DNA from: Elusimicrobiota bacterium
Lineage (GTDB): Bacteria; Elusimicrobiota; Elusimicrobia; UBA1565; UBA9628
NCBI GenBank assembly: GCA_027452025.1
Contig: DAIDHI010000080.1
Coordinates: 58 to 64,057, forward strand
Direction of reading: 5' to 3'
DNA: 64,000 nucleotides
The notes under the pieces are model-generated. The model was not told the origin of the DNA. It did no database searches and saw only the letters and a program-made list of their open reading frames with translations. Below, piece by piece: positions 5,667 through 61,502 of this stretch (within the stretch, counting starts at the first letter, position 1; every line of letters begins with the position of its first letter). The translations under genes were made by a program, and so were the position numbers.

Positions 5667-5678
5667 CCGGAGATCGCC

Positions 5679-6631: not shown

Positions 6632-6663
6632 GCCGGGTACGACGCCTTTGTTAGCATCGCGCC

Positions 6664-7262: not shown

Positions 7263-7304
7263 GGCGATATGATATGATCTTTGCCGCTATATAAGGAGAG
7301 ATCA

Positions 7305-12518: not shown

Positions 12519-15269
<2,751 letters not shown>

Positions 15270-18380: not shown

Positions 18381-20517
<2,137 letters not shown>

Positions 20518-20534
<17 letters not shown>

Positions 20535-23697: not shown

Positions 23698-23773
23698 AGG
23701 GCCTAAGGTACAATAAATAAGGAGGGTACGGGCCATGGTCCCGATCGGCGCGGTGCGGCGTTATCTGGACGCG

Positions 23774-30629: not shown

Positions 30630-32612
30630 TCAGCTGGCCGCGGCGGAAAACGCGGCGAAATCGCTCATGCGAGGCATCTTGCGCACATAGGCGACGGCCT
30701 GCATCCGGTCGAGCGCGAGGCGCTGGGCGACCGGCAGGCTCGACATGGGCATGGCCAGGAAAAGGAAAGAGTCGTCCTCTTCGAAGACCCAGCGCCGCTT
30801 GACGAGGTCTGCGAGCGCCCGGCGCACGCGCTTGGCCGAGCAGCGGGGAAACTTTTCTTGGCAGGCCCGCAGGACGCCGGGGAAGGGACGGATCTCGTCG
30901 CAGGCTTCCAGGATCGCGGCCTCAAGGCCCGTGACCAGGCGCTGCCGGTGCTCGATGCGCCGGGAAAGCCCGAGCGGACGCGAGTCGTAGACCTCCATGA
31001 AGCCGAGGCCCTTGCGATAGGCGAAATAGTTCTTCTGGTAGATCCGCTGCCAATGGTCGAATATCGGGCGTATCACGGGCTCGGCGTAGTCAGCCGGATC
31101 CGGCTGCCCTTCGACGCTCGGCGCCTCGAAGAAGTAGGCGATCTCGCCGCGCTTGAAGCGCGGCTCTGGGTAGAGGAAACGGTATTCCTCCATAGGCACG
31201 GGCTCCCGCAGCCCGAAGCGCCGCCAGTCGAAGTAGTAGGGGCTGAAGCGGTCGACCCGGATGACGTGGGCGTAAAACGGCGGCTGCAGGTGCGTCGCCG
31301 CCGCCATCGTATCGGCGATCCTGCGGTACTCGTCGGGCGACTCGCCGGGAAAGCCCCACAGCATCCCCCACGTCAGCTGAATGCGGCCCGCGCAGGCCTT
31401 GAGCGCCTGGAGGTTTTGGATGGTCTTGACGCCCTTGCGCATCAGCTTGAGGACGGGCGTGCTGAAGCTCTCGATGCCCGCTTGGATCGCCAGGATTCCG
31501 GCCTCGTGAAGAGTCTCGATCTGGGCCGCCGTCAAGTTCGCCTTGGTCTCGAAAAAAACGTGCCACTCGAGCTTGTGCTTCTTGCGAAACTCCGCCAGGA
31601 CGGCGGTGAGGCTGGTGAGGTGCTCCACGCTCAGGATGTTGTCGCAGGCATGCAGCCGGTAGGTCTTGTATCTCTCGAAGAGGAAGGCGATCTCGGCGGC
31701 GACGGCCTGCGCCGGCTTGGCGCGGAACGTCATGCCGTCGCGGTTGAGCCCGCAGAACGTGCAGTGCTGCTTCTGCCCCCACCAGCATCCGCGGGAGGCC
31801 TCGAAAGTCACCTGCGGCGAGACCCACGATGCCATGCCCGAGGCCTCAAGCTCACGGAAATAGTCGTCGTGGTCGGGAACTGGCACGCGGCGCATGTCGG
31901 CCAGGCGCGTCTCAGCGGGGTTTCGGGAGACGACGCCCTCGCCTGTCCGCGCCGAGACATGCGGCATCCCCTTCGGGAGCCGGCCGGAGCGGATGTGCCG
32001 CAGCAGCGCCGGAAACGCCTCCTCGGCCTCGCCTTCGACGACGTAGTCGACCCACTCGCAGCCCTTGAGCGTCGCCACCCCCATCTCGCCGTCGCAATTG
32101 GCTCCGCCGAGGACGATCGTCGTTTTCGGATGCTTGCGCTTGATGAGGCGGGCCAGCGCCAGAGAGGCGATGTGATTGTGGAACATGCTGCTGAAGCCGA
32201 CGACGTCGTAGCGCCCCCAGGGGACGTCGGCCAGGCAATGCTCGAGGAAAGCCGGCACGTCGTCGCGCACGAGCCTGCGCAGGCGCTCGCGCGGAAATTT
32301 TCCAAGGTTCTTGGCGAACACGGGCTCGGCGAGGACGTCCTCGAGCTCGTCAGGCAGCTCCTTGAGGCCGCCCGGGCCGAAAAGATGATAGGCGAAGGCC
32401 CACTGCGCGAAATGCCCGTAGGGAGCGAGCGCGAAGGCGTCGAGAAGGTCGTCGGCCCACCGGCCGAAGCGCAAGTTGAGGTAGTGGACGTCGCAAGGCA
32501 TCCCTTCACGCGCGAGGACGCTTTTGAGCACGCCGACTCCGAGCGGAGGCCGGTCGGGCGCGGCCCAAGGCATGACGACCAAGGCGACGCGGAGGCTGCG
32601 CGGTTTGGACAT
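30630..32612 (-). CDS. B12-binding-domain radical SAM enzyme (class B; resembles RiPP C-methyltransferase-type)
   Basis: N-terminal LRVALVVMPWAAPDRPPLGVGVLKSVLAREGMPCDVHYLNLRF (cobalamin-binding-like Rossmann region), then SRGCWWGQKQHCTFCGLN (Cx7Cx2C cluster motif). 660 aa from ATG 32612. The listed 840-aa ORF has a junk N-terminus. Confidence 0.85.
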   Translation of the reverse strand: MSKPRSLRVALVVMPWAAPDRPPLGVGVLKSVLAREGMPCDVHYLNLRFGRWADDLLDAFALAPYGHFAQWAFAYHLFGPGGLKELPDELEDVLAEPVFAKNLGKFPRERLRRLVRDDVPAFLEHCLADVPWGRYDVVGFSSMFHNHIASLALARLIKRKHPKTTIVLGGANCDGEMGVATLKGCEWVDYVVEGEAEEAFPALLRHIRSGRLPKGMPHVSARTGEGVVSRNPAETRLADMRRVPVPDHDDYFRELEASGMASWVSPQVTFEASRGCWWGQKQHCTFCGLNRDGMTFRAKPAQAVAAEIAFLFERYKTYRLHACDNILSVEHLTSLTAVLAEFRKKHKLEWHVFFETKANLTAAQIETLHEAGILAIQAGIESFSTPVLKLMRKGVKTIQNLQALKACAGRIQLTWGMLWGFPGESPDEYRRIADTMAAATHLQPPFYAHVIRVDRFSPYYFDWRRFGLREPVPMEEYRFLYPEPRFKRGEIAYFFEAPSVEGQPDPADYAEPVIRPIFDHWQRIYQKNYFAYRKGLGFMEVYDSRPLGLSRRIEHRQRLVTGLEAAILEACDEIRPFPGVLRACQEKFPRCSAKRVRRALADLVKRRWVFEEDDSFLFLAMPMSSLPVAQRLALDRMQAVAYVRKMPRMSDFAAFSAAAS

Positions 32613-32657
32613 TTTGTTGCAAGGGGACGTCGCTGAAGTATTATAGTATATCGCCCT

Positions 32658-33209
32658 ATGGAGATCGTCGAGGAAGCCAGCGATATTTTCAGCTTTCAGC
32701 TCCTCTCGCCGAGCTATTGCCAAAAACTCGTCCGGTGGGCTTCGCGGGACCTCCGGTGGAATCGCGGGCGCGTGTACGCCGGTCCGCGGCGCCTGCAGGA
32801 CGCCGCCTCCCGCCGCTGCCTGGAGCGCACGGTCGCCGGCCTGCCCCCTCCCTGGAACGAGCTGGCGCAGGCTTGCCGCGAAAAGGCGCTTTCCGCGGCG
32901 CGGCTGTGCTGGCGCGAGCGCTTCAGGCGGCTGACCGGAGCGCGTCTGGTGCGCTACGACCCCGGCGGCTATTTCAAGATGCATTGCGACTTCCTCCCCA
33001 GCCTGCGGGTCAAGCCGCGCTTCCTGAGCCTGGTCTGCTATCTCAACGAAGACTTCTCGGGCGGGCGCACGGCCTTCCCGCGGCAAGCCCACGACATCGT
33101 CCCAAAGACCGGGAAAGCCGTCCTCTTCCCGTCCTCGATCACGCACCCTCACGAAGCCCAGGCCGTCCGAGAGGGGACCCGCTACGTGATCGTGGCCTGG
33201 GTCGAATGA
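32658..33209 (+). CDS. 2OG-Fe(II) oxygenase (prolyl-4-hydroxylase-like)
   Basis: YFKMHCD (HxD) ... ITHPHEA (distal His) ... RYVIVAWV, a double-stranded beta-helix pattern. 183 aa. Confidence 0.75.
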   Translation: MEIVEEASDIFSFQLLSPSYCQKLVRWASRDLRWNRGRVYAGPRRLQDAASRRCLERTVAGLPPPWNELAQACREKALSAARLCWRERFRRLTGARLVRYDPGGYFKMHCDFLPSLRVKPRFLSLVCYLNEDFSGGRTAFPRQAHDIVPKTGKAVLFPSSITHPHEAQAVREGTRYVIVAWVE

Positions 33210-36389: not shown

Positions 36390-36426
36390 GCGGCCTCTCC
36401 GCTCGCGCGGAGAGGCCGCTCATTTT
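36390..36426. terminator. GC-rich hairpin between convergent transcripts (likely bidirectional terminator)
   Basis: 13-bp stem GCGGCCTCTCCGC / GCGGAGAGGCCGC with loop TCGC, followed on the + strand by TCATTTTA. It sits between the stop of the 36012-36371 gene and the 3' end of rnpB. Confidence 0.5.
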
Positions 36427-36797
36427 AGGGAGAGCCTGTACCCCGAATTCTGTTCCCCCCTCGCGGAGGGCGAGGATCATTTCTCTGATGCGGCTACCGA
36501 GGAGCCGCCCCGCCTCTCGGCGGGACCGCGCGGGCCGCGCGAGCTCCCACACTGCCTTGCTCCGGACGGGGTTTGCCGTGACGCCGTCCCTCGCGGGACG
36601 GCCGGTGGGCTCTTGCCCCACCTTTTCACCCTTGCACTCCGCACGGTCTGCGGAGTGCGGTTGTTCTCTGTGGCACTTTCCGTCGGCGAAGCGTATGGTC
36701 TTCGCCTCCCCGCCTTTCGACGGGCGTCCTGCCCTGCGGAGTTCGGAAGTTCCTCCCCCCGCGACGCGTCGCGGAAGGCGATCCCCCGGCTCTCCCT
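36427..36797 (-). ncRNA. rnpB: RNase P RNA (bacterial type A-like)
   Basis: The reverse complement contains GGAAAGTGCCACAGAGAACAACCGC, GCAAGGGTGAAAAGGTGGGGCAAGAGCCCACC, GGCAAACCCCGTCCGGAGCAAGG and ACAGAATTCGGGGTACAGG. P1 pairing is AGGGAGAGCC...GGCTCTCCCT. The ends are approximate. Confidence 0.85.
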
Positions 36798-37565: not shown

Positions 37566-38084
37566 ATGGCGGCCTCAAAAGTCGTTTTGCTCGTCGGCCA
37601 CGGGGGAATCCCCAAGGATTGCCCGCCGCAGCTCGTCTCCGAGTTCAAGCGCGAGGAGGCCCGGGCGGCCGGAAAGCCCTCCGCGCGCCTCCTCGAGCTC
37701 GACGCCCGCCTGCGCCAATGGCCCCGGACGCCGGAAAACGACCCCTATAAGCCCGGCTTGGAGGCCGTGGCGGCCTCCCTCGCCGCGGCCCTGCCGGAGC
37801 ACGACGTCGTCACCGCCTACAACGAATTCTGCGCGCCAAGCCTCGAGCAGGCCTTCGACGAGGCCGTGGCGGGCGGCGCCCGCCAGATCATTGTGATCAC
37901 CACCATGTACACGCGCGGGGGCATCCACAGCGAAAAGGAAATCCCAGCGATCCTGGAGGGCCTGCGCCGGCGCCATCCGGGAGTCGAGGCCCGCTACGTC
38001 TGGCCCTTCGATGCCGCGGCGATCGGGGAGTTCCTGGCCCGGGAAGTGCGCCGTACCGAGACGGACGCGCCGGCCCCGGCATGA
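37566..38084 (+). CDS. CbiX/SirB-type sirohydrochlorin chelatase-like protein
   Basis: VVLLVGHGGIP... and ...IIVITTMYTRGGIHSEKEIP match the small CbiX(S) pattern. 172 aa. Confidence 0.65.
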   Translation: MAASKVVLLVGHGGIPKDCPPQLVSEFKREEARAAGKPSARLLELDARLRQWPRTPENDPYKPGLEAVAASLAAALPEHDVVTAYNEFCAPSLEQAFDEAVAGGARQIIVITTMYTRGGIHSEKEIPAILEGLRRRHPGVEARYVWPFDAAAIGEFLAREVRRTETDAPAPA

Positions 38085-39865
38085 AGCTCTGGCTGACCTT
38101 GGCCGCGCTCCTGGCAGCCGCGACGCCCGCGCAAGCTTTCTTCTCCCACGCCCGAAAGGCCGCTTCCCCGCCGGCCGCGCCCGCGCCGCCGCCCGAACCC
38201 CTCGATCCGCTGACGACGGCCGAGATCGACGGCGCGGCGCAGGCGCTGCGCGACTCGCGGCTTTTCAGCGATTCCGCCGTCTACCTTTCCATCGCCCTCC
38301 AGGAGCCGTCCAAAGACGAGCCGGGCGCGGGCAAAAGGCTCGCCGCCGCCGTCATCTATGACCGCGCGCGCCGCGAGACCTCGGAGGCCGTCGTCGACGT
38401 CGCCAACCGCAAGCTCGAGTCGTGGCGCCTGGTCCCCGGCATAGAGCCCGGGCTTTCCGACGAGGAGCTCTCGCGGGCGCGGAAACTGGCGTTGTCCGAC
38501 TCCCGCTTCAAGGCGGCGATGGCGGCGCGCGGCCGCAAGACCTGGGACGATCTCGAGGTCGACGGCTGGTCGCCCGGGCCGCTCGACGCGGCGCGCAACT
38601 CGCCGCACCGGGTGGCGCGTCTGGACTTCTACGTGCCCGCGGCGCGCGGCCGCGTCCTCATCGACGGGCTGCAGGCGCTGGCCGACCTGACCGAGGGCAC
38701 GGTCGTCGAGCTGCTCGACGCCGGCGGGCCGCCTCTGCCGCCGCCGGCCCAGGCCCAGGCCCCGGCCCCCGCGCCGCCGCCGCAGCCGGCCAAGAAGAAG
38801 AAAAAACGGGAGGAAGCCCCCGCGCCTGCGGCGCCCTCCTACCCGTTCGAGGTCGCCGGCCACGAACTGCGCTGGCGAGGATGGACGCTGCGCTACGCGC
38901 TGACGCCGCGCGAAGGGCTCGTCCTCTACGAGGTCTCGCGCGACGGCCGGGGGATCGCCGACCGGGCGAGCCTTTCCGAGACGTTCGTCGTCTACGGCGA
39001 CGCGCGGCCGCAGTGGGCCGACCGCTCGGTTTTCCAGGAAGGCGAGCGCGGCCTGGGCCTGCGCGATATCCCGCTCGATCCCGCCCTGGACGCTCCCTCG
39101 CAAGCCGCCTTTTTCGACGAACCGGGCCCGGGGCCGGACGGCCGGGGCCGGATGCTGACGCGCGCCGTCGCCGTCTTCGAGCGAGACGCCGGCCGCGGAG
39201 CCGTCCGCCGCCTCAAGGAGCTCGTCCTCGAATCCAAGGCGCAGGCCGGACCCGAGACCTACGTCACGCGCTGGACCCTGGGCGACGACGGCGAGCTCGA
39301 CGCCGGCGTCGACGTCTCGCAAGACGACCCGGAGGCGCCGCCGCACCAGCATTTCTTCAATTTCAGGGTGGATTTCGACGTCGACGGCAGCACCGACTCG
39401 GTGGCCGAGCTGGAGGCCGCGCCCGGACGGATGACCCTGCTGTCGACGCCCCTGGAAAACCGCTCCCAGGCCCGTCGCGACGTCGACGAGGCGGCGGGCC
39501 GCCGGTGGCTCGTGACGGCGTCCTCCCCCTCGGCCGACGCCTCCCGAGGCTACCTGATCATCCCGGAGGGCAACGCGGCGCCGCTTTCGCCCGCCTTCTC
39601 GCCCGCGCGCCGCGCCGCGCCCTTCATCGGTCACCAGCTTTGGATCACGGCCTACCGCCCCGACGAGCTTTACGCGGCCGGAGAGTTCCCGGGCCGCCGC
39701 GCGCGCGCCGGAGGCGTCGAGCGCTGGACCCAGCGCGACGAGCCGATCCGCGACGCAGACCTCGTCGTCTGGTACACGCTGGGAGCCACGCATCTGCCCA
39801 GGGCCGACGGCTCCGCCCGCCGCCCGCTTTCCTGCCGCCTGCGCCTGGTCCCCGCCGGGCGCTAG
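38081..39865 (+). CDS. copper amine oxidase-fold protein (divergent; secreted)
   Basis: Signal peptide MKLWLTLAALLAAATPAQA. The C-terminal domain carries HQHFFNFRVDFDVDG (HxH copper ligands) and VVWYTLGATHLPRADG (third His). The canonical NY(D/E)Y TPQ motif is not seen. Confidence 0.6.
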   Translation: MKLWLTLAALLAAATPAQAFFSHARKAASPPAAPAPPPEPLDPLTTAEIDGAAQALRDSRLFSDSAVYLSIALQEPSKDEPGAGKRLAAAVIYDRARRETSEAVVDVANRKLESWRLVPGIEPGLSDEELSRARKLALSDSRFKAAMAARGRKTWDDLEVDGWSPGPLDAARNSPHRVARLDFYVPAARGRVLIDGLQALADLTEGTVVELLDAGGPPLPPPAQAQAPAPAPPPQPAKKKKKREEAPAPAAPSYPFEVAGHELRWRGWTLRYALTPREGLVLYEVSRDGRGIADRASLSETFVVYGDARPQWADRSVFQEGERGLGLRDIPLDPALDAPSQAAFFDEPGPGPDGRGRMLTRAVAVFERDAGRGAVRRLKELVLESKAQAGPETYVTRWTLGDDGELDAGVDVSQDDPEAPPHQHFFNFRVDFDVDGSTDSVAELEAAPGRMTLLSTPLENRSQARRDVDEAAGRRWLVTASSPSADASRGYLIIPEGNAAPLSPAFSPARRAAPFIGHQLWITAYRPDELYAAGEFPGRRARAGGVERWTQRDEPIRDADLVVWYTLGATHLPRADGSARRPLSCRLRLVPAGR

Positions 39866-51676: not shown

Positions 51677-51751
51677 TGGTGGGCAGTATAGGATTCGAAC
51701 CTATGACCCCTGTCGTGTGAGGACAGTGCTCTACCGCTGAGCTAACTGCCC
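51677..51751 (-). tRNA. tRNA-Val (anticodon CAC), CCA-encoded
   Basis: Reverse complement: GGGCAGT TA GCTC AGCGGTA GAGC A CTGTC CTCACAC GACAG GGGTC ATAGG TTCGAAT CCTAT ACTGCCC A CCA. This gives a full cloverleaf with a 7-bp acceptor stem and a TTCGAAT T-loop. Confidence 0.9.
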
Positions 51752-51803: not shown

Positions 51804-51833
51804 TTGACAACCCAAGTTCTCCCTTATTAGTAT
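51804..51833 (+). promoter_or_regulatory. candidate sigma70-type promoter of the regulator/radical-SAM operon
   Basis: TTGACA (51804-51809), an 18-nt spacer, then TAGTAT (51828-51833), inside an unusually AT-rich ~110-nt intergenic region. A small inverted repeat ATTGAAACAAT lies just downstream. Confidence 0.35.
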
Positions 51834-51862: not shown

Positions 51863-52378
51863 ATGAGCGACAGGCTTAAGGCGGCGAAGGCGCGGTTCGT
51901 GTCCACCTGGGGCGAGATGGCGTCCCATTGGGGCATCAACAAGACGATGGCGCGCATCCATGCGCTGCTCATCGCCTCCGACGCCGCGCTCTCGGTCGAC
52001 GAGATCATGGCAACGCTCTCGATCAGCCGCGGTAACGCCAGCATGAACCTGCGGGCGCTGATGGACTGGGGCCTGGTCAGGCGCGTTTCGGTGGGCAGCG
52101 AGCGGCGCGAGTATTTCCAGAGCGAGAAGGACGTCTGGAACATGTGCTGCCGCATCGCGCGCGAGCGCAAGAAGCGGGAGATCGAGCCCGTGATCGGCGC
52201 TCTGGAGGAATGCCTGCGCGAAGCCGGGGAAGGCCAGGACTCGGCGGCCTTCCGGCGCCGGACCAAGGAGCTCTTGGAGCTGGTCAAGACCCTCGATTTC
52301 GTGCTCGGCAAGGTCGCCGCGCAAGAGAAGAACGCCGTCATGCCGCGCGTGCTGACGCTGCTCAAGGCCATGTCATGA
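51863..52378 (+). CDS. GbsR/MarR-like winged-helix transcriptional regulator
   Basis: FVSTWGEMASHWGINKTMARIHALLIASDAALSVDEIMATLSISRGNASMNLRALMDWGLVRRV is the GbsR-type wHTH pattern. Confidence 0.7.
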   Translation: MSDRLKAAKARFVSTWGEMASHWGINKTMARIHALLIASDAALSVDEIMATLSISRGNASMNLRALMDWGLVRRVSVGSERREYFQSEKDVWNMCCRIARERKKREIEPVIGALEECLREAGEGQDSAAFRRRTKELLELVKTLDFVLGKVAAQEKNAVMPRVLTLLKAMS

Positions 52379-53319
52379 CTCCCGCTTCTTTATTAAAGGT
52401 GGAGGACTCGCTCTCCCGCGTTCGCGCGGGCCTGGAGAGCCGCGCCCTGCGCATCGAGGGCCGGGTCGGCCGGGAGCTGGCGGCCTTCGTGGCCCGCCCG
52501 GGAAAGATGCTGCGCTCGCGCTTCTGCCTGCTTTTGGGCGGCGCGCTGGGCGTGCCGCGGGACAAGGCCGAGGCGGCCGCCCGGGCGCTGGAGCTGGTGC
52601 ACAACGCCAGCCTCCTCCATGACGACTGCATCGACGAGGCCACGCTTCGCCGCAGCCGGCCCACGCCCAACGCCCTTTTCAACATCCCGACGGCGCTGCT
52701 CATCGGCGATCTGGCTTTTTCCCAAGGCCTCGAGGAGGCCGTGGACGTTTCGCCGAGCGCGGCCAAGCTCCTGGCCGCGGCGGTGCGCGAGATGTCGGTC
52801 GGGGAGCTTCAGGAGGAGTTCCTCAAGGGCGACGCCGACTTGACCGTCGACGCCTACATCGGCGTCTGCTCGCGCAAGACCGGCGCGCTCTTCGAGTGGG
52901 CCGGGGCGGTGCTCTCGGAGCTGAGCCCCTTTCCCCACGAGCAGGCGGACCCGCCGCGGCTGGCCTGCGCGGCCGGCATCCTCCTTCAGGTCGTCGACGA
53001 CATCCACGACTACACCCTGGGCGAGCGGGTGTCGGGCAAGGACGAGGGCCAGGACGTCAAGAACCGGCGGCTGACGCTGCCCTGCCTCTACGCCCTGGCC
53101 GACGCGCGGGCCCGCGAGGAGTTTCTCAAGCTTTGGCGAGGCGGCGACGCGACGGGAGTGGGACGGTTCCTCGTCGAGGGCGGGTTCGTCGCGAAGGCGC
53201 GCGGGAAGGGGCGGGAGCTGGCCGACTCCATGACGGCGATGGCGCGCGCCCTGCCCTGCCGCGCCGAGGCCTCCCAATTGGCCTTCTTCATCGACCTGCT
53301 GGTCAAGAGGGAATTTTGA
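52375..53319 (+). CDS. polyprenyl diphosphate synthase (trans-isoprenyl, FARM/SARM type)
   Basis: First Asp-rich motif LLHDDCIDE and second motif VVDDIHD. 314 aa. The ATG overlaps the regulator stop (ATGA). Confidence 0.88.
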   Translation: MTPASLLKVEDSLSRVRAGLESRALRIEGRVGRELAAFVARPGKMLRSRFCLLLGGALGVPRDKAEAAARALELVHNASLLHDDCIDEATLRRSRPTPNALFNIPTALLIGDLAFSQGLEEAVDVSPSAAKLLAAAVREMSVGELQEEFLKGDADLTVDAYIGVCSRKTGALFEWAGAVLSELSPFPHEQADPPRLACAAGILLQVVDDIHDYTLGERVSGKDEGQDVKNRRLTLPCLYALADARAREEFLKLWRGGDATGVGRFLVEGGFVAKARGKGRELADSMTAMARALPCRAEASQLAFFIDLLVKREF

Positions 53320-53320
53320 G

Positions 53321-53761
53321 ATGTCTTACGAGGCCCTGGTCAAGAAAGCGTGGGCGAGCGGGACGTTCAAGCTCGACGAGGCCGAGGCCGGAAAGGCCGA
53401 TCCGTCGGCGGCCGTCAGTCGCGAGGCCGTGCGCCGGGAGATGGAACAGATCGCGGAGAGGGAGACCTGGGACGCCGCAAGCTGCTTCTCCGCCCATAAA
53501 GAGGGAATCATGAAACTAGCTCCGTTCGTGAAGTTCCGTGAAGAGAAGTTCGGCGCCGTGCTCTTTGAGACGCGCTCGGAGAAGGTCTATACGCTCAGCC
53601 CGAGCGGCGCCGCCGTCGTGCGGGAAGTGGTCGCCGGGGCCACTTCCAGCGACCTGCCGGCCAGGCTCAAGCAGAAGTTCGAGGACCCCACCGGGAAGAT
53701 GGAGCAGGAAGCGGCAAGCTTCCTGGCCCAGCTCAAGGACAAGGGCCTCGTCGTCGAGTAG
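53321..53761 (+). CDS. PqqD-family peptide chaperone (RRE) with 63-aa N-terminal extension
   Basis: The C-terminal 83 aa (MKLAPFVKFREEKFGAVLFETRSEKVYTLSPSGAAVVREV...FLAQLKDKGLVV) show the PqqD/MftB pattern. The N-terminal 63 aa have high GC3, so they are probably translated. There is an internal alternative start at 53510. Both ATGs are preceded by AAGAGGGAAT. Confidence 0.7.
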   Translation: MSYEALVKKAWASGTFKLDEAEAGKADPSAAVSREAVRREMEQIAERETWDAASCFSAHKEGIMKLAPFVKFREEKFGAVLFETRSEKVYTLSPSGAAVVREVVAGATSSDLPARLKQKFEDPTGKMEQEAASFLAQLKDKGLVVE

Positions 53762-53767
53762 GGCGCC

Positions 53768-54739
53768 GTGACCGCGCAAGCTCCCGAAAGCGCGCCGCAG
53801 ACGGGCACCGAGGATCTCGGCGCCCCGCTCTACGTCGCCTGGCAGATCACCAACGAGTGCAACCTGGCCTGCCTACACTGCATCGAGGAGTCCGGGCCGG
53901 GAAAGGCCTTCAAGGACGAGCTGACCACCGAGGAGGCTTACCGCCTCATCGACCAGCTCGCGCAAGGCGAGGTGCCCTACGTCTCCTTCTCGGGCGGCGA
54001 GCCGATGGTCCGGCCGGACTTCTTCGGCATGGTCGAGAGAATCACTCGGGGCGGCGTCGGGCTCAAGATCGAGACCAACGGCCATTACCTAACCGCTGAC
54101 AACTGCCGCCGCCTCAAGGACCTGGGCGTCAAGGCCGTCCAGGTCTCCCTCGACGGCGCCAGCCCCGCCTCGTTCAACAAGATGCGGGTCCACGGCCGCT
54201 TCGAGTCGGCGCTGGAAGGCATCGGCCGGCTGCGCGAGGCGGGCGTGCCGATCGAAATCAACTTCGTGCCGGCGAAGTTTAATATCCGCGAGATCGGCGC
54301 CGCCGTCGACTTGGCCTACCGGCTCGGGGCGTATTCGTTCTATACCGGCAAGCTGATGTATACCGGCAACGCCGTGCGCACCTGGGGCATCACCGCCCCC
54401 GACGAGGCGGAGTATCCCGCCTACTTCGCCGCGCTCAAGGAGAAGGCCAAGGAGTACGAAGGCCGCATGCGCGTCTACTACCACGAGATGGGGCTGCTCG
54501 AGGAGCTGCGCTACCGCCTGAAAAACCCCGCCGCCCTCTTCATCGTCCTGCCCAACGGCAAGGTCAAGCTCATCAACGCCCTGCCCTTTATCTGCGGCGA
54601 CCTGCGCCGCCAGAGCCTGGGCCAGGTCTGGCAGAGCTTCCAGCTCGCCTGGAAAAGCCCGCGGGTCAGCGCCTTCATCGACGAGCTCGCCGCCGACCCC
54701 TCGATCCTGTCTCGTCTGCACCGCTGGGAGGAGGTCTAG
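53768..54739 (+). CDS. radical SAM enzyme, PqqE/AhbD-like core, SPASM cysteines absent (paralog 1)
   Basis: YVAWQITNECNLACLHC (Cx3Cx2C), SFSGGEP, KIETNG, VQVSLDG. The C-terminal region ...VLPNGKVKLINALPFICGDL keeps only one Cys. Confidence 0.85.
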   Translation: MTAQAPESAPQTGTEDLGAPLYVAWQITNECNLACLHCIEESGPGKAFKDELTTEEAYRLIDQLAQGEVPYVSFSGGEPMVRPDFFGMVERITRGGVGLKIETNGHYLTADNCRRLKDLGVKAVQVSLDGASPASFNKMRVHGRFESALEGIGRLREAGVPIEINFVPAKFNIREIGAAVDLAYRLGAYSFYTGKLMYTGNAVRTWGITAPDEAEYPAYFAALKEKAKEYEGRMRVYYHEMGLLEELRYRLKNPAALFIVLPNGKVKLINALPFICGDLRRQSLGQVWQSFQLAWKSPRVSAFIDELAADPSILSRLHRWEEV

Positions 54740-54745
54740 GCGGAC

Positions 54746-55633
54746 ATGAGCCTCGTCGGCAAGGCCGCGGCGCTGGTGCGCTACCGCTTCTTTCTCTACG
54801 CGGGCCTCCTGCCCTATCTGCTGGGCGCGGCCTGGGCCTACGGCGTGGACCGGCAGTTTCGGCCCGGCGTCTTCTGGCTCGGCCTGCTCGGGATCTTCCT
54901 CGCCGTCGTCGGAGTCGAGAGCTTCAACGAGTATTTCGACGCGAAGATGGGGACCGACCGGGTCTTCAATCCCGACGCCGACGAGAACATCCCGGAGTGG
55001 ATGTTCTCGCTCGGCGTGGCCGCCTTCGCGCTGGCCGCGGCGGTCGGCTTCTACCTGGCCTGGGAAGGCGGCTGGCCCGTGGTCCTCTATACTCTGCTCG
55101 GCGGCGCCGCCGCCGTCTGGTACGTGGGCCCGCCCGTGCGCTGGGTCTACCGGGGCCTTGGCGAGGCCGTGATCGGGCTGTCCTACGGCCCGTGGATGAC
55201 GCTGGGCTCGGTGCAGCTGCACACGCACCGTTTTTCCTGGGGCGCGCTGGCCGCGTCGCTCGTCCCCGGCCTGCTGATCATGGCGCTGGCCGTGGTCAAC
55301 AACATCCCCGATTATCATCAGGACCGGCTGGTCGGCAAGAGGAACCTCGTCGTGAGGCTGGGCCGGGAGAAGGGACGGCTGCTCTACCTCGCCTTGTCGG
55401 GGCTGGGCTTGGCCGTGATCGTCGCCGGAGCGGCGGCGGGGACGTTCCCGCGCCTTTGCCTGCTGGCCGCGCTGCCCGGCGCCGCCCTTTGGTGGGCGAG
55501 CCTGCGCGCCGGCCGGGACACCTGGGACACGCCCCGCGCCTTCCTGCCGGCCATCAAGAGCATCGTGCAATGCTACGCCTTGACGACGCTGATCTTCGCC
55601 TTGGCGGTGGCGTTCGGAGCGCGCCTGGCATGA
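54746..55633 (+). CDS. UbiA-superfamily aromatic prenyltransferase, MenA-like
   Basis: NEYFDAKMGTD (compare MenA NDYGDAVKGSD) and NNIPDYHQDRLVGKRNLVVRLG (compare MenA NNLRDINSDRENGKNTLVVRLG, recalled from E. coli). 8-9 TM helices. Confidence 0.85.
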   Translation: MSLVGKAAALVRYRFFLYAGLLPYLLGAAWAYGVDRQFRPGVFWLGLLGIFLAVVGVESFNEYFDAKMGTDRVFNPDADENIPEWMFSLGVAAFALAAAVGFYLAWEGGWPVVLYTLLGGAAAVWYVGPPVRWVYRGLGEAVIGLSYGPWMTLGSVQLHTHRFSWGALAASLVPGLLIMALAVVNNIPDYHQDRLVGKRNLVVRLGREKGRLLYLALSGLGLAVIVAGAAAGTFPRLCLLAALPGAALWWASLRAGRDTWDTPRAFLPAIKSIVQCYALTTLIFALAVAFGARLA

Positions 55634-56592
55634 GGATCGATTCCCTGAGCGCCCCGGCGATGGTCGCCTGGCAGCTCACGCGCGACTGCAACCTCGCCTG
55701 CCTGCACTGCTGCACGGACTCCGCGCCGGGCCGGGCGCTGCCCGGCGAGCTGCCGCGCGAGAGAGCCCTGTCTCTGGCGCGCGAGATCGCCGAGGCGGGC
55801 GTGCCTTACGCGCTGATCGCCGGCGGCGAGCCGAGCTTGGTCTCGCATTTCGGCGAGGTCTGCGCCGCGCTTTCCCAGGGCGGCGTCTGGCTCAAGGTCG
55901 AGACCAACGGCCAGAGCTTCGACGTCTCGGCGCTGCGCGGCCTGCGCGTGCGCTCGGTGCAAGTCTCGCTCGACGGCGCGACTCGGCGCGTCTACGCCCG
56001 ACAGCGGCCGGGCGGCGACCTGGAGAAGGCCCTGGCCTGCGGCCGCGCCGTGCGCGCCGCCGGGCTGCCCCTGGAGATCACGTTCGCCCCCACTCTCCTC
56101 AACATCGACGAGGCCGGCGCCGTCATCGACTTGGCCCTGGAGCTCGGAGCCTTCCGCTTCAACACCGGAAGGCTCATGCGATTGGGCACCGCCGCCAAGC
56201 TCTGGCAGCGCCTGGAGCCTTCGCAGGAGCGCTACGAAAGGTTCCTCGCGCTGCTCGAGCGGCGCGAGCGCGAGCTGGCCGGACGCCTGGAGCTGTGCTT
56301 CCGGCCGTTTTCGCTGCCCGAGGATGCCCGGGCCCTCAGACGCGAGCCCCCGGGGACCTTGCTGATCCTCCCCGACGGCCGCGTGAAAGTGGCCGCGCCG
56401 CTGCCCTACACCTGTTTCGACGTGACGAAACGTCCGTTTCTCGAGGCGTGGGACGCGTATCGCAAGTCTTTCGGCGATCCGCGCGTCCTGCGCGCCTTCG
56501 AGCGCCTCGCCGCCGACCCCGCGTCGTCGGCGAAGGCCAATGAGTGGGTCGACCTGGAGTCCGTCGCCTTCGATTTGCCGGCCGTGGTCTGA
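55630..56592 (+). CDS. radical SAM enzyme, PqqE/AhbD-like core, SPASM cysteines absent (paralog 2)
   Basis: MVAWQLTRDCNLACLHC, IAGGEP, KVETNG, VQVSLDG, ...ILPDGRVKVAAPLPYTCFDV. The ATG overlaps the prenyltransferase stop (ATGA). Confidence 0.85.
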   Translation: MRIDSLSAPAMVAWQLTRDCNLACLHCCTDSAPGRALPGELPRERALSLAREIAEAGVPYALIAGGEPSLVSHFGEVCAALSQGGVWLKVETNGQSFDVSALRGLRVRSVQVSLDGATRRVYARQRPGGDLEKALACGRAVRAAGLPLEITFAPTLLNIDEAGAVIDLALELGAFRFNTGRLMRLGTAAKLWQRLEPSQERYERFLALLERRERELAGRLELCFRPFSLPEDARALRREPPGTLLILPDGRVKVAAPLPYTCFDVTKRPFLEAWDAYRKSFGDPRVLRAFERLAADPASSAKANEWVDLESVAFDLPAVV

Positions 56593-56612
56593 CCGGCAGA
56601 CAGGAGTCAAGC

Positions 56613-56735
56613 ATGAACGACCAGAAGAAGACCGTGACCGTCGTGAAGGCCGAGCCGAAGCTCGTTTGGCAGACCCCCTCCCTGGAGGAGGTCTCCGATC
56701 GGGTGATGGCGCAGCCTTACATCCGGTTCACGTGA
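56613..56735 (+). CDS. 40-aa candidate precursor peptide (PqqA-like): MNDQKKTVTVVKAEPKLVWQTPSLEEVSDRVMAQPYIRFT
   Basis: AGGAG SD lies 7 nt upstream of ATG 56613. 37 of 40 codons end in G/C by hand count. The TGA stop overlaps the GTG start of the next radical SAM gene (GTGA). It is visible only as the tail of the listed ORF 56544-56735. Confidence 0.6.
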   Translation: MNDQKKTVTVVKAEPKLVWQTPSLEEVSDRVMAQPYIRFT

Positions 56736-57700
56736 CGCACGGGAGAGGGGCGTCCGTGGGCGACTACGGCGCCCCTCTCTTTCTGGCCTGGCAGCTGACC
56801 AACCGCTGCACGGGCAGCTGCCTGCACTGCTGCGAGGAATCCGGGCCCGACAAGGCTTGGCCCGACGAGATGAGCCGCGAGCAGTGCTTGTCGCTGGCCC
56901 GGCAGATCGCGCGCATGGGCGTGCCTTACGTGGCCTTCGGCGGCGGCGAGCCGATGGGCTCGCCCCACGTCTGGGAGATCTTCGAGATCCTGGCGCGCGG
57001 CGGCGTCGAGATCAAGATCGAGACCAACGGGCTGCTCCTGGACGACGCGGCCTGCGACCGGCTCAAGGCCTTGAACGTCGCCTGCGTGCAGATCTCCATC
57101 GACGGGGCGACGGCCGCCGTTCACGAGGGCCTGCGTCCCGGCTCCGGCTACGCGCCGGCCTGGGAGGCGATCGACCGCCTGGTCTCGCGCGGCCTGGGTC
57201 CCGAGCTCGTTTTCATCCCCACCAAGCTCAACGTCTCCGGCGCCGTCGCCGTCTATGAGCAAGCGGCGCGGCGGGGCGTGCGCACGTTCGTGACGGGGCC
57301 GCTCATGCGCCTGGGGCGGGCCGCCGCGGCCTGGGAGGCCCTGGCCTGCTCCGAGGAGCAATGGGCCGCCGCGGCCGAGGCCCTGCGGCAGGCCTCGCTG
57401 CGCGAAAAAGGCCCGCGCCTGGCGCTCTATCCTTGGGGCATCCAGGCCGAGATGAAGACCCGCGCCGAAAGCCCGCAGGCCATGGTGCTGGTCGTGCCCA
57501 ACGGCCGGGTCAAGCTCCTCAACGCCCTGCCCTTCGCCGCCGCCGACCTCAAGACCGAGACGCTGGCCGCGGCCTGGCCGAAGGTCGCCGCCGCCTGGCG
57601 GCGGCCCGAGGTCCAGGACTTCGTGCGCCGCGCGCAAAGCGACCCCGGTCTTCTGCGCCACGCCAACGAGTGCTGGGACGTGGCCCTCGCCGGCGCCTAA
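56732..57700 (+). CDS. radical SAM enzyme, PqqE/AhbD-like core, SPASM cysteines absent (paralog 3)
   Basis: LFLAWQLTNRCTGSCLHC, FGGGEP, KIETNG, VQISIDG, ...VVPNGRVKLLNALPFAAADL (no Cys at the SPASM-entry position). GTG 56732 is preferred, and GTG 56756 is also in frame. Confidence 0.85.
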   Translation: MTHGRGASVGDYGAPLFLAWQLTNRCTGSCLHCCEESGPDKAWPDEMSREQCLSLARQIARMGVPYVAFGGGEPMGSPHVWEIFEILARGGVEIKIETNGLLLDDAACDRLKALNVACVQISIDGATAAVHEGLRPGSGYAPAWEAIDRLVSRGLGPELVFIPTKLNVSGAVAVYEQAARRGVRTFVTGPLMRLGRAAAAWEALACSEEQWAAAAEALRQASLREKGPRLALYPWGIQAEMKTRAESPQAMVLVVPNGRVKLLNALPFAAADLKTETLAAAWPKVAAAWRRPEVQDFVRRAQSDPGLLRHANECWDVALAGA

Positions 57701-57744
57701 AACTCGCTGCGACGGGCGGCAAAACTGCTATCCTGAGACGTCGC

Positions 57745-58191
57745 ATGGCGGCTCTCTTTCCTCACGGCTGGATCCATTACTTGGCGGGCGGCCTGCTCAT
57801 CGGCTGCGGGGTCTCGCTGATCTATCTCTGCACCGGCGTGGCCGCCGGCACGAGCTCTTTTTTCAGCGCGCAGTGGTCCTGGTTCTCGCGCCTGGGCTTT
57901 TTTAGGCAGGAGCGCTGGCGCGAGGAACGCGGCTGGCGGCTGATCTACGCCGCCGGCCTGGTCGCCGGAGCGCTGCTTTGGCGGCTCGAGACCGGCGTCT
58001 GCCTGACGACGTCCGTGGAGCCGCGCAGGCTCCTCGTCGGCGGCCTGCTGGCCGGCTTCGGTGCGCGCCTTTCGGGCGGCTGCACGGCCGGCCACGGCAT
58101 CTGCGGCCTCGCCTCTCTCAAGAAGGAGTCTTTCGTGGCCGTTCCCGTCTTCCTGCTCACGGCGATCCTCGTGGCGAGGCTCCTGCCGTGA
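57745..58191 (+). CDS. YeeE/YedE-family (sulfur-compound transport) membrane protein, half-size subunit 1
   Basis: GGLLIGCGVSLIYL... and ...LSGGCTAGHGICGL conserved Cys motifs of the YeeE/YedE family. 148 aa. Confidence 0.75.
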   Translation: MAALFPHGWIHYLAGGLLIGCGVSLIYLCTGVAAGTSSFFSAQWSWFSRLGFFRQERWREERGWRLIYAAGLVAGALLWRLETGVCLTTSVEPRRLLVGGLLAGFGARLSGGCTAGHGICGLASLKKESFVAVPVFLLTAILVARLLP

Positions 58192-58598
58192 AGCGCGCCG
58201 CCGCGGCGCTCTTGGGCGGCGTCCTCTTCGGCCTGGGCCTGGCCGTTTCCGGCATGGTCCGGCCCGAGACCGTCCTCGATTTCCTCCACCTGCGCGACAT
58301 GGGCCTTTTGCTCGTGCTCGGCGGGGCGGCGGGCGTCAGCCTCCTCGCCTTCCAGCTCGCGCCGCGGCTGCTCGGCCGGCCGGCGTTCGGAGGAAGCTTC
58401 GAGCCGCATCCCGGGCGCCTGAGCGGACGCACCTTCGCCGGCGCGGCGATCTTCGGGGCGGGCTGGGGCCTGTGCGGAGTCTGCCCGGGGCCGGCCGTGG
58501 CGGGCCTGGGCGCGGGCCTGACGGCGCTCTTGTGGTCCGTCGCCGGGCTCGCGCTCGGCGCCTGGCTGCACGGGCTCTATCAAGAGCTGGCCGGCTAG
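58188..58598 (+). CDS. YeeE/YedE-family membrane protein, half-size subunit 2
   Basis: LLGGVLFGLGLAVSGM...GAGWGLCGVCPGPA motif. The GTG overlaps the upstream stop (GTGA). Confidence 0.7.
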   Translation: MKRAAAALLGGVLFGLGLAVSGMVRPETVLDFLHLRDMGLLLVLGGAAGVSLLAFQLAPRLLGRPAFGGSFEPHPGRLSGRTFAGAAIFGAGWGLCGVCPGPAVAGLGAGLTALLWSVAGLALGAWLHGLYQELAG

Positions 58599-59860: not shown

Positions 59861-60241
59861 ATGCCAATCACCACAGATCGTCAGACGTCCGTCGCGGGAG
59901 CCGTGGACTATTTCCGCGCCAAGCTCCAGTTCGAGACGACGCCGCACCAAGTCAAGGCCGCCGTCGAGCATGGCGACATCGTGCTCCTCGACGTGCGCGA
60001 CGCCGAGTCCTACAAGGCCGAACGCATCCCCGGCGCCAAGAACGTCCCCATGACCGAGCTCGAGAAGCACCTCAAGAGCCTGCCCAAGGACAAGACCCTC
60101 GTGACCTACTGCTGGAACATCACCTGCGCCATGGCGCCCAAGGCGGCCCTCATGCTGGCCGAGAAAGGCTTCCAGGTCCAGGAGCTCGTCGGCGGCCTGG
60201 AGGAATACCGCAAGAAGTTTCCCACCGAAAAGGCCAAGTAG
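59861..60241 (+). CDS. rhodanese-like domain protein
   Basis: VLLDVRDAESYKAERIPGAKNVP ... TLVTYCWNITCAMAPKAA (active-site Cys loop). Confidence 0.85.
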   Translation: MPITTDRQTSVAGAVDYFRAKLQFETTPHQVKAAVEHGDIVLLDVRDAESYKAERIPGAKNVPMTELEKHLKSLPKDKTLVTYCWNITCAMAPKAALMLAEKGFQVQELVGGLEEYRKKFPTEKAK

Positions 60242-60259: not shown

Positions 60260-60294
60260 GACCCCGCTCGCCCCGCGAGCGGGGTCTTTTTTTT
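60260..60294 (+). terminator. Rho-independent terminator
   Basis: GACCCCGCTCG / CGAGCGGGGTC 11-bp stem, loop CCCCG, followed by T8 (60287-60294). The T-run overlaps the stop codon of the convergent gene. Confidence 0.85.
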
Positions 60295-61502
60295 CAGCGC
60301 AAGACCAGCCGCGAGTCCGGCGGCCACAGGCGCGGCGTCTGATCCCGGCCGAAGCCCCGGGCCGCGTCCTCGACGCGCGGCGCGAGATAGCGCTCGAGGC
60401 CCGCGGCCGTCACGCGGCCGGAGGCGTCGGCGGCCTCGCCGTCGAGGCCCTTGAGCAGGTAATACGTGAAGGCGCCATGGCCGACGCGGTCGAGCGAGAC
60501 GGAGACTTGCCTCGGGCCGGAGGCCGTCAGGACGGTCAGCGTGGGGTCGCGAGGCAGAGCTGATTCGACCCGCGTGACCAGCGGGCGGACGTTGGAGGCC
60601 AGGACCGAGCGCGGGCCCGCGCCCGAAAAGCAGGCGTCGAGCGCGACGAAGGTTTGGCGCGCGCCGAGCTCGGAAAGGTCGGCATAGAGGCGTTTGAGCG
60701 GGAAGCCAGTTTTCTTGAGGTAGTTCGCATCGCCGTCCCAGGGCACCAGATAAGCCGCGCCGGTGACCGGGTCCGGCGCTCCGTGGCCGGAAAAGAAGAA
60801 ATAGACCCGGCTGTCCTCCTTGACGCGGCGAGGCAGCCACAGCTCCAGGTATTTCTCCAGGCTCGCCAGCCCGGCCTTGTCGTCGGCCAGGAAGACCACG
60901 TTGCGCGGCGGCACGCCCAGGGCGAGCAGGTGCCGGTAGACGGCCCGGGCGTCGCGCACGGCGTAGCGCGCGTCGGGCAGGTCCGAATAATGCTCGACGC
61001 CGACGGCCACGGCCAGGTCGTGCGGCCGCTGCGGCAGCCGGTAGTCCGGCTCGGCCAGCGGGTCCTCGGAGCCGGGCAGCGGCCCGGGCGCGGACGGCTG
61101 GGCCCCGGCCGCCGGCAGCGAGGCGAGCAGGCCGGGGTCGGAGAGCAGCCGGCGGGCGACCTTCCGCGACAAGTCGCGCATCGCGCCCGACCACGTCCAG
61201 AGGCTGCGCGTCTCGACTGAAAAAAGCCGCCGCGAGCGGGCGCCGTCGTAGACGTCCGCGGTGAATCCCACGCCGCGCCCGAGCTCTATTTGCAGGTCGC
61301 AGTCCCGCTTGCCCTGCCGCGCGCGGTCAAACTCCGCGGCGTAGCGCAGAAACAGGGGAACCAGCGGCTCGTCGTCGGCGGTCTTGGCCGAGACGCAGAC
61401 CGCGGCGTCGAACCCCGCGCGCGCCGGCGCGGCGGCGGGCCCGAAGGACGACAGAAGGAGCAGAAGCGCGGCGGTCATGCGGCGGGGCGGGGCTAGCCGC
61501 AA
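60294..61502 (-). CDS. secreted caspase-like (peptidase C14) domain protein
   Basis: Signal peptide. A C14 His-Cys dyad context is present: YFFFSGHGAPD and FVALDACFSGAG. The start is 61502 or 61478. Confidence 0.72.
   Translation of the reverse strand: MRLAPPRRMTAALLLLLSSFGPAAAPARAGFDAAVCVSAKTADDEPLVPLFLRYAAEFDRARQGKRDCDLQIELGRGVGFTADVYDGARSRRLFSVETRSLWTWSGAMRDLSRKVARRLLSDPGLLASLPAAGAQPSAPGPLPGSEDPLAEPDYRLPQRPHDLAVAVGVEHYSDLPDARYAVRDARAVYRHLLALGVPPRNVVFLADDKAGLASLEKYLELWLPRRVKEDSRVYFFFSGHGAPDPVTGAAYLVPWDGDANYLKKTGFPLKRLYADLSELGARQTFVALDACFSGAGPRSVLASNVRPLVTRVESALPRDPTLTVLTASGPRQVSVSLDRVGHGAFTYYLLKGLDGEAADASGRVTAAGLERYLAPRVEDAARGFGRDQTPRLWPPDSRLVLR

Follow-up and report, generated by a model that had tools for sequence, protein, structure and literature searches.

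A 64,000-nt stretch of DNA from an Elusimicrobiota bacterium (contig DAIDHI010000080.1 of assembly GCA_027452025.1, forward-strand positions 58 to 64,057; hereafter the window) contains, at 51863-58598 on the plus strand, a gene cassette in which a 40-residue precursor peptide is encoded together with a PqqD-family chaperone, radical S-adenosylmethionine (rSAM) enzymes and a MenA-like membrane prenyltransferase of the UbiA family. Judged by their co-occurrence across genomes, the peptide, the chaperone, the rSAM enzyme and the prenyltransferase are one conserved functional unit. The cassette is widespread and apparently undescribed. By analogy, its logic is that of pyrroloquinoline quinone (PQQ) and mycofactocin biosynthesis, with a peptide, a PqqD protein and a radical SAM enzyme, joined to MenA-type prenylation. 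We favor the explanation that the cassette makes a polyprenylated, membrane-anchored cofactor derived from the peptide, and give this an even chance of being right; the chemistry, the order of the steps and the role are all inferred from the genes.

The region holds ten open reading frames (ORFs), identified from the ORF list and by Pfam and NCBIfam searches, in a contig with a GC content of about 68%. With the promoter-like site that precedes them, they are as follows.

51804-51833, plus strand: sigma-70-like promoter, TTGACA-18-TAGTAT, 10 of 12 consensus matches, in the AT-rich spacer 5' of the operon
51863-52378, plus strand: helix-turn-helix (HTH) regulator of the MarR/ArsR/GbsR type (MarR_2, HTH_20; CudC-like, 45 bits)
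52375-53319, plus strand: polyprenyl diphosphate synthase (PF00348, polyprenyl_synt, E = 5.8e-41)
53321-53761, plus strand: PqqD-family chaperone, a putative recognition element (RRE) of peptides synthesized by the ribosome and modified post-translationally (RiPPs) (PF05402, E = 2.5e-9, residues 79-144)
53768-54739, plus strand: radical SAM paralog R1 (Radical_SAM of Pfam; CxxxCxxC motif, CNLACLHC)
54746-55633, plus strand: MenA-like membrane prenyltransferase of the UbiA family (PF01040; best NCBIfam model MenA)
55630-56592, plus strand: radical SAM paralog R2 (Radical_SAM of Pfam; CxxxCxxC motif, CNLACLHC)
56613-56735, plus strand: precursor peptide, 40 residues (no family match; AGGAG 9 nt upstream)
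56732-57700, plus strand: radical SAM paralog R3 (Radical_SAM of Pfam; CxxxCxxC motif, CTGSCLHC; the start overlaps the stop codon of the peptide gene)
57727-58191 and 58188-58598, plus strand: two half-size YeeE/YedE-type membrane proteins (Sulf_transp, DUF6691; start of the first uncertain)

The original prediction, made from the sequence of the window, had described this region as one tightly coupled operon, and its gene order, domains and coordinates held for all ten ORFs in the Pfam and NCBIfam searches. Every overlap and gap that it listed was also found when the junctions were read from the sequence: ATGA overlaps at 52375 (regulator and synthase) and 55630 (UbiA and R2), GTGA overlaps at 56732 (peptide and R3) and 58188 (the two YeeE halves), gaps of 1, 6 and 6 nt at three other junctions, and, ahead of the peptide gene, a gap of 20 nt with AGGAG in it. 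The three radical SAM genes had been called paralogous, and their products share 37-41% pairwise identity. Two sigma-70-like sites were observed in the region against 0.4 expected from shuffles, counted as consensus matches alone, and a tRNA-Val(CAC) gene on the opposite strand (51677-51751) sits immediately upstream of the promoter-like region. This tRNA and a class A RNase P RNA (182 bits; 36423-36797, minus strand) were the sole finds of an Rfam scan of the window, which detected no riboswitch or other RNA element.

The peptide has a leader with the motif W19-x-x-P22-x-L-E-E-V-S and a core, V31-MAQPYIRFT40 (56703-56732), directly followed by the stop codon. A degenerate DNA pattern for MAQPYIRFT (40.4 bits) was scanned against one genome per GTDB species (2 x 596 Gb) and gave at least 119 species-genome matches, against about 0.8 expected by chance as calculated from the 40.4 bits. 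In all of these matches, as far as they were listed, the motif was the end of a small ORF, with the stop codon next. The original prediction had staked its reading on conservation of the 40-aa ORF in homologous neighborhoods, and this conservation is what the scan revealed. Moreover, leader residues that the search did not impose were strongly conserved among 122 sequences: W(-22), P(-19), S/T(-13) and V/I(-10) in 100%, D/E(-15) in 99%, V(-14) in 98% and E(-16) in 93%. The 27-nt core occurred in 89 distinct DNA versions, and so many versions of one peptide core imply that selection acts at the protein level. We conclude from this pattern that the 40-aa ORF is genuine and is under strong purifying selection.

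To avoid ascertainment bias, an independent sample of 80 metagenome loci was collected via the radical SAM protein alone. The peptide was present in 63 of them, and in each of the remaining 17 the sequence upstream of the rSAM gene is shorter than 600 nt. The core was identical in 62 of the 63 and read MSQPYIRFT in one. Variants of the core are very rare: besides this change (A to S; ...VMSQPYIRFT at 449-638 of locus L196), one database peptide ends in ...PYIRFN, and the rest of the peptides examined were identical. In the database set (P0390-P0509, the 120 listed of 391 matches), all 120 are unnamed or called "hypothetical protein". By record title, the genome matches, at least 119 in total, comprise Proteobacteria (at least 54), Elusimicrobiota (at least 40), Omnitrophota (at least 6), Planctomycetota (at least 4), Lentisphaerae (at least 3), unclassified bacteria (at least 6) and other single matches (at least 6). 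The single matches include Bacillota, Thermodesulfobacteriota, Aminicenantia, Hydrogenedentota, a metagenome-assembled genome labeled Ktedonobacter and one archaeon of the Hadarchaeota. Among the proteobacterial carriers are Burkholderiales, Casimicrobiaceae, Usitatibacter, Steroidobacteraceae, Rhodovibrio, Rhodopila, Acidocella and a cultured strain, Rhodothalassium salexigens DSM 2132. The peptide thus spans at least ten bacterial phyla and the Hadarchaeota.

Some genomes carry more than one copy of the peptide gene. Two peptide loci each were found in the genomes behind L043/L046, L045/L086 and L009/L075, and extra unlinked copies lie at about position 1302 of L011 and about 977 of L046, with no PqqD, rSAM or UbiA gene nearby. 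The extra copy in L011 is about 0.5 kb downstream of an ORF with a CxxCH heme motif that resembles a NapC/NirT-type cytochrome c.

For the comparison of loci (L-numbers) we write p for the peptide, D for the PqqD-type chaperone, R for a radical SAM enzyme, U for UbiA and S for the polyprenyl diphosphate synthase. Every one of the 45 loci that have 1.3 kb or more of sequence on either side contains all four of p, D, R and U, across many phyla and in two gene orders, which bears out the proposal that peptide, PqqD, radical SAM enzyme and UbiA belong together. The type A layout, p-D-R-U, sometimes with a second R, occurs in phyla of the Planctomycetota-Verrucomicrobiota-Chlamydiota (PVC) group, Omnitrophota, Bacillota, Aminicenantia, some Elusimicrobiota and the archaeon. 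The type B layout, D-R-U-R-p-R, occurs in Elusimicrobiota and Proteobacteria and is that of the window, whose form, S-D-R-U-R-p-R, is an expanded version of the four-component cassette. The set of three radical SAM paralogs is therefore not a requirement, contrary to what had been supposed, because many phyla have the same peptide core with one R. The family of these enzymes is small (62 representatives after clustering at 50%, at E <= 1e-30). A more distant branch, about 40% identical, is found in Aminicenantia, Omnitrophota, Planctomycetota, Sedimentisphaerales and Dethiobacter, on contigs with the neighborhood small ORF-PqqD-rSAM-UbiA in which the small ORFs end in MAQPYIRFT. Of our rSAM alignments, A2 was too divergent for the metagenome scan and A3 was used.

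The synthase is a neighbor of the cassette in type B loci of Elusimicrobiota and, among the longer type A loci, in about one in four; the suggestion of a dedicated polyprenyl diphosphate synthase is supported by its recurrence beside the unit in both layouts. Two other members of the predicted operon fall away. In two other Elusimicrobiota contigs, recovered via UbiA homologs, the order synthase-PqqD-rSAM-UbiA-rSAM-peptide-rSAM is kept with wholly different flanks, which places the YeeE halves outside the system; they follow the cassette in the window alone, are not conserved with it, and were rejected as core parts. The regulator was likewise rejected, since it is upstream only in the window and in five close loci (L014, L078, L092, L114 and L201), a subclade of the Elusimicrobiota. 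Among the flanking ORFs, clustering picked out as recurrent the polyprenyl synthase and, in part of the type A loci, nqr genes along with a histidine kinase; no conserved protease, hydroxylase, transporter or exporter, or immunity gene was found among them. The flanks in Proteobacteria (L040, L073 and L080) are heterogeneous, with ORFs that by eye resemble 2-oxoacid:ferredoxin oxidoreductase, formate dehydrogenase and sensor kinases; in R. salexigens DSM 2132 (L080), R-p-R is seen within the 8-kb stretch covered. A tblastn search of a plasmid collection with UbiA gave no match.

Within the reach of our literature search, which left out most subscription-journal papers, we found no description of the cassette or its motif and no paper joining UbiA, a precursor peptide and a radical SAM enzyme. 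A paper on Bathyarchaeia was considered as a possible earlier description and set aside, as it concerns PQQ alone. Nor did any named RiPP or cofactor family match in NCBIfam, Pfam or database names, in agreement with the novelty first claimed.

The three radical SAM proteins carry the CxxxCxxC motif, which is kept in 161 of 162 orthologs of the type B paralogs (54/54 for R2 and 54/54 for R3) and in 56 of 56 type A enzymes. Of the domains that had been proposed for checking, PqqD, Radical_SAM, UbiA and polyprenyl_synt were found but SPASM was not: R1-R3 have no SPASM match in Pfam and no SPASM cysteines. Most rSAM orthologs have no more than 1-3 cysteines in their last 130 residues, which makes auxiliary clusters improbable. 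An AlphaFold2 model of R1 (predicted local distance difference test score, 92.4) has as its nearest solved folds SkfB (template modeling score 0.73 over 301 columns), then PqqE (6c8v) and SuiB, and a sequence search of PDB chains with the rSAM protein gave the same top two, SkfB and PqqE. As far as the model goes, R1 is structurally closest to peptide (RiPP) maturases.

The PqqD protein scored 37.8 bits with PF05402 (cut-off 23.4). Its best NCBIfam model is the lasso-peptide PqqD (35 bits), and the PQQ-specific model TIGR03859 gave 20 bits against a cut-off of 46. With its W-x-K-P-x-L, the peptide leader has a weak match (E = 0.003) to the beginning of a lasso-leader model of the YxxPxL type. 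A lasso-type PqqD together with a YxxPxL-like leader is, by sequence, the picture expected for an RRE with its recognition sequence, and the locus has the generic make-up of a RiPP system, that is, a gene-encoded leader and core peptide beside an RRE/PqqD and a putative modifying enzyme. An N-terminal extension of about 64 residues (53321-53512; MSYEAL-x-K/R-AW-x-SG-x-F) is conserved in the PqqD of high-GC Elusimicrobiota only (L001, L002, L008, L014, L018, L053, L110 and L113) and is absent from Proteobacteria, low-GC Elusimicrobiota and all type A cassettes.

These results bear on tetrapyrrole tailoring, in which R1-R3 would be of the AhbC/AhbD/NirJ type and UbiA would resemble a heme O or chlorophyll synthase. 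AhbD (147 bits) and NirJ2 (132 bits) are indeed among the top NCBIfam models for R1, and a hemB gene (ALAD; 24442-25416, minus strand) lies in the window. Yet these scores are far below the cut-offs of 500-650 (500 each for AhbD and NirJ2), auxiliary-cluster cysteines are missing, the nearest solved folds are peptide maturases, and a PqqD partner and the invariant peptide are always present. The BchG and ChlG models gave 32-36 bits for UbiA, and hemB is 27 kb away and unlinked in the other loci examined. Of the three tetrapyrrole genes that the original prediction had placed in the window, hemB stands; its hemL is probably a class-III aminotransferase (22420-23736, minus strand) and its CbiX-like gene was not found among the ORFs scanned. 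We rejected the tetrapyrrole reading, which we regard as extremely unlikely, on the scores, the missing cysteine cluster and the nearest folds, and the initial preference for placing the radical SAM proteins outside AhbC/AhbD/NirJ is upheld. The class-III aminotransferase gene is directly upstream of an aldehyde dehydrogenase gene (20969-22423, minus strand), an arrangement more typical of a gamma-aminobutyrate (GABA)- or amine-catabolic pair.

To our knowledge, PQQ and mycofactocin are the two free cofactors derived from ribosomal peptides. With PQQ the cassette shares a small conserved peptide with a W-x-x-P leader and a Tyr, a stand-alone PqqD and a PqqE-class radical SAM enzyme, and its core is conserved in the manner of a cofactor precursor. 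The W-to-Y spacing (17 residues) and the number of residues after the Tyr (four) are the same as in Klebsiella PqqA. The peptide had been called PqqA-like; the leader motif W-x-x-P-x-L bears this out, but the remainder does not, since PqqA gave no match even at E <= 10, and no Pfam or NCBIfam model matches the peptide as a family. An alignment by hhalign with four PqqA sequences matched the leader alone (11% probability), and a profile search of PDB chains with the peptide found nothing. Unlike PqqA, the cassette peptide has a Met at the position of the cross-linking Glu. With the PqqE model TIGR02109 (cut-off 381), R1, R2 and R3 reached 90, 52 and 47 bits, and SPASM clusters are lacking. The window operon is without PqqB, PqqC and PqqF, and neither PqqB nor PqqC recurs among the clustered neighbors. 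Finally, the obligatory UbiA prenyltransferase has no counterpart in PQQ systems.

With mycofactocin the cassette shares a peptide, a PqqD-like chaperone and a radical SAM enzyme for a C-terminal core with a Tyr, and R2, R3 and the type A enzyme have MftC as their top NCBIfam model, at 83-130 bits. With the MftC model TIGR03962 (cut-off 265), however, R1, R2 and R3 scored 126, 83 and 111 bits, and the MftB model TIGR03967 gave 22 bits against 33. The core ends in IRFT, not GVY, and its Tyr is not C-terminal; MftD, MftE, MftF and SPASM cysteines are lacking and a prenyltransferase is present. Taken together, the AhbD, NirJ, MftC and PqqE models gave 47-147 bits for R1-R3 (cut-offs 265-650), and no cassette protein reaches any NCBIfam equivalog cut-off. 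By these scores the cassette is outside PQQ, mycofactocin, the MenA equivalogs and AhbD/NirJ.

Other peptide systems resemble the cassette in part. The best PqqD models are those of lasso-peptide systems, whose recognition motif the leader recalls, and the top structural matches of the R1 model, SkfB and SuiB, are radical SAM cross-linkers, a group that also has members of the triceptide type. The Y-I-R of the core is in keeping with the aromatic-x-x motif of three-residue cross-links. The cassette differs from these systems in lacking a lasso cyclase, a protease and auxiliary Fe-S clusters, in its invariant core and in its added membrane prenyltransferase. As in the prenylated RiPPs (ComX/ComQ and the cyanobactins), in which an isoprenoid is put on a Trp or Tyr of a ribosomal peptide, the product could be a prenylated peptide. 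ComX and cyanobactin prenylation uses soluble ComQ-type or ABBA-fold enzymes, C5-C15 donors and variable cores; the cassette, in contrast, has an integral-membrane enzyme of the UbiA type, a long-chain-type synthase and an invariant core. No UbiA-family enzyme is known to us from any RiPP or cofactor pathway.

The UbiA protein of the window is 25% identical to Escherichia coli MenA, and the two Asp-rich motifs line up in register, NEYFDAKMGTD with NDYGDAVKGSD of MenA and NNIPDYHQDRLVGKRNLVVRLG with NNLRDINSDRENGKNTLVVRLG. These motifs are conserved in 54 type B orthologs, and the protein is 41-43% identical to the cassette UbiA proteins of other phyla. The adjoining synthase has the motifs of trans-polyprenyl synthases, namely LLHDDCIDE as the first Asp-rich motif (FARM; context NASLLHDDCIDE) and VVDDIHD as the second; its best NCBIfam matches are long-chain synthases, all below cut-off. 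In trans-prenyl synthases, small residues before the first DDxxD lead to a long product. Here, positions -5 and -4 are the small residues A and S (NASLLHDD), which predicts a long-chain enzyme, and the synthase probably makes a long-chain product.

The features of these two proteins could also be those of a familiar pathway, in which UbiA is an ordinary prenyltransferase of 1,4-dihydroxy-2-naphthoate (DHNA), the synthase makes an ordinary quinone tail, and p, D and R either yield an unrelated, soluble product or belong to a new, peptide-based way of making a known quinone, (demethyl)menaquinone for instance. The models that fit UbiA best are those of MenA, both catalytic motifs align with those of E. 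coli MenA, and the synthase has long-chain-type features. In L003, a contig with archaeal-type domains of unknown function, a UbiE/MenG-type methyltransferase follows the cassette, as would suit menaquinone synthesis. Rhodothalassium and Rhodopila contain menaquinone-10 (MK-10) besides ubiquinone-10 (Q-10). In Rhodovibrio, a cassette-bearing genus, MK-10 has been reported alongside Q-10. These genera, three in all, would be compatible with a tie between the cassette and a menaquinone-type lipid in Alphaproteobacteria.

Against an ordinary MenA stand the scores, however: the window UbiA reached 109 bits with NF004751 (cut-off 264) and 63.5 bits with TIGR00751 (cut-off 102), and the type A UbiA of L003 reached 121 bits against 264. 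The window protein also lacks a MenA insertion of about 14 residues. In none of the 45 complete loci is UbiA apart from the peptide genes, and in type B it is interleaved between rSAM genes; an enzyme so inseparable from them is not explained by chance co-location. The cassette resembles the MenA/UbiA quinone pathways in its Asp motifs, its adjoining long-chain-type synthase, the occasional methyltransferase and a linkage to a quinone reductase operon, but it is below all MenA equivalog cut-offs, is always accompanied by peptide-maturation genes and has no chorismate-derived head-group genes nearby. The 64-kb window yielded no men, mqn or ubi genes, and neither men nor mqn genes were among the recurrent neighbor ORFs. 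Also, we know of no plausible route from the MAQPYIRFT core to a naphthoquinone. Altogether, we consider that the ordinary-quinone explanation is distinctly unlikely.

The linkage to a quinone reductase is seen in type A loci, where clustering of the flanks yielded homologs of NqrA, B, C, D and F of the Na+-translocating NADH:quinone oxidoreductase (Na+-NQR). NqrB scored 365 bits against a cut-off of 350, and Nqr models were the best matches for the NqrA, C, D and F homologs. Five loci, L171, L178, L180, L181 and L188, have the cassette between nqrD/E and nqrF, and it comes directly after nqrF in L126, L129, L144, L160, L161, L175, L009 (Planctomycetota), L087 (unclassified) and L088 (Omnitrophota). 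L041 (Lentisphaeria) has the cassette behind nqrA-D, with no nqrF match. Grouped at 80% rSAM identity, these loci form at least six clusters (minimum identity 55%), to which the Planctomycetota, Lentisphaeria and Omnitrophota genomes are added; the linkage thus extends over at least 8-10 lineages. The arrangement in L188, in which three of the junctions overlap by 4 nt, is as follows.

3941-4531: nqrE
4551-4703: peptide
4714-4986: PqqD
4983-5945: rSAM
5942-6913: UbiA
6910-8001: nqrF

Such linkage fits any quinone, and hence also the ordinary-quinone explanation. It further raises the possibility that the cassette is an accessory or maturation system of NQR-type complexes, with the prenylated peptide as a lipid-anchored subunit or assembly factor. 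The translational coupling between nqrE and nqrF, or the position after nqrF, would suit such a role; in other bacteria apbE and nqrM follow nqrF, the position that the cassette has here. Most cassette loci, however, including those of Elusimicrobiota, Proteobacteria, Bacillota, Aminicenantia and the archaeon, have no nqr genes nearby, and we hold this role to be very improbable. The NqrA-like subunit of the nqr-linked operons has ferredoxin-type Cys motifs and also matches RnfC/RsxC models, and by these features the complexes may be NQR/RNF intermediates.

In the explanation that we favor, the PqqD/RRE would bind the leader motif W-x-x-P-x-L-E-(D/E)-V-S and offer the invariant core, (V/I)MAQPYIRFT, to one or more radical SAM enzymes without SPASM. 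These would modify the core, most likely at the Tyr, by a C-C cross-link or another radical remodeling (compare PqqE, MftC and SkfB). The membrane UbiA would then attach a long polyprenyl chain, supplied by the adjoining synthase, to the modified aromatic group or to a released fragment. The original prediction, too, had a Tyr-derived head group prenylated, and the nqr linkage lends such chemistry a measure of indirect support. The product would be a housekeeping molecule that is derived from the peptide and anchored in the membrane; a redox cofactor or a quinone-like carrier, acting together with Na+-NQR or similar respiratory complexes, is its most likely form. The invariance of the core across domains, and the lack of any conserved exporter, protease or immunity gene, fit a cofactor better than an antibiotic or a signal.

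The same architecture of precursor, RRE, radical SAM enzyme and tailoring transferase is typical of a RiPP cluster, and the product could instead be a lipidated RiPP, a cross-linked and polyprenylated peptide that serves as a structural, signaling or antimicrobial membrane molecule. The ten invariant residues and the exact C-terminal end would then mean that much of the core is kept in the product, in line with the lack of conserved excision enzymes. Conversely, the cores of antibiotic and signaling RiPPs vary, whereas here one core extends from Hadarchaeota to Proteobacteria; a conserved exporter, leader peptidase or immunity gene is missing, and the shared operon with nqr speaks for a place in core energy metabolism. 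We think a lipidated RiPP of this kind unlikely, if less so than the ordinary-quinone explanation.

Four observations weigh against the cofactor explanation. First, the nearest models of UbiA are DHNA prenyltransferases, and its acceptor may be a conventional small molecule. Second, ten consecutive invariant residues suggest a product or recognition element larger than one Tyr-derived ring. Third, no hydroxylase, protease or other excision enzyme, or PqqB/PqqC-like gene that could account for oxidation or excision of a head group is conserved in the cassette. Fourth, the nqr link is limited to the single-rSAM layout, in PVC-related and unnamed lineages, with none in the window or in Proteobacteria.

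The remainder of the window holds genes of varied function. The YeeE/YedE halves and a rhodanese gene (59861-60241) look like a small sulfur or thiosulfate uptake module. A 904-aa ORF (8847-11561, minus strand) contains a malate synthase (residues 148-376, with N- and C-terminal domains) and an isocitrate lyase/phosphoenolpyruvate (PEP)-mutase (residues 552-777), so that both glyoxylate-shunt enzymes are apparently fused; an aconitase gene (12519-15269) lies beside it. A copper amine oxidase homolog (38081-39865, plus strand; Cu_amine_oxid, E = 1.9e-59), of a family with a Tyr-derived topaquinone cofactor, is something seldom expected in Elusimicrobiota and implies that the bacterium lives exposed to oxygen. 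An 840-aa B12-binding radical SAM protein (30630-33152, minus strand) is unrelated to R1-R3 and adjoins a family 2 glycosyltransferase with a tetratricopeptide repeat (TPR) domain (29654-30622). Also unrelated to the cassette are a 717-aa fusion of TPR and Ser/Thr kinase (18381-20534, plus strand), an EVE-domain protein (20518-20967, minus strand) and a caspase-family Peptidase_C14 protein (60294-61502, minus strand).

An invariant core from an archaeon to Proteobacteria, tied to a membrane prenyltransferase and to nqr operons, suggests that membrane bioenergetics has a widespread component so far unrecognized. Should the product be no more than a lipidated peptide, a UbiA-family enzyme in a RiPP pathway would still be new enzymology. 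More tentatively, and with doubt outweighing confidence, the cassette could represent the third ribosomally encoded cofactor family, and the first that is isoprenoid-anchored, serving in many uncultivated bacterial phyla, in some Proteobacteria and in an archaeal lineage as an oxygen-independent quinone-like carrier, for example as an acceptor of Na+-NQR. An isoprenoid electron carrier of ribosomal origin would be categorically new, and the cultured carrier R. salexigens DSM 2132 makes the question directly testable. If the molecule is a quinone-like carrier, the cassette would give a respiratory lipid cofactor by a new route that needs no oxygen, and it could explain how little-understood groups, among them groundwater Elusimicrobiota, Omnitrophota and Planctomycetota, charge quinone-dependent complexes; predictions of respiration from men, mqn and ubi genes would then need revision.

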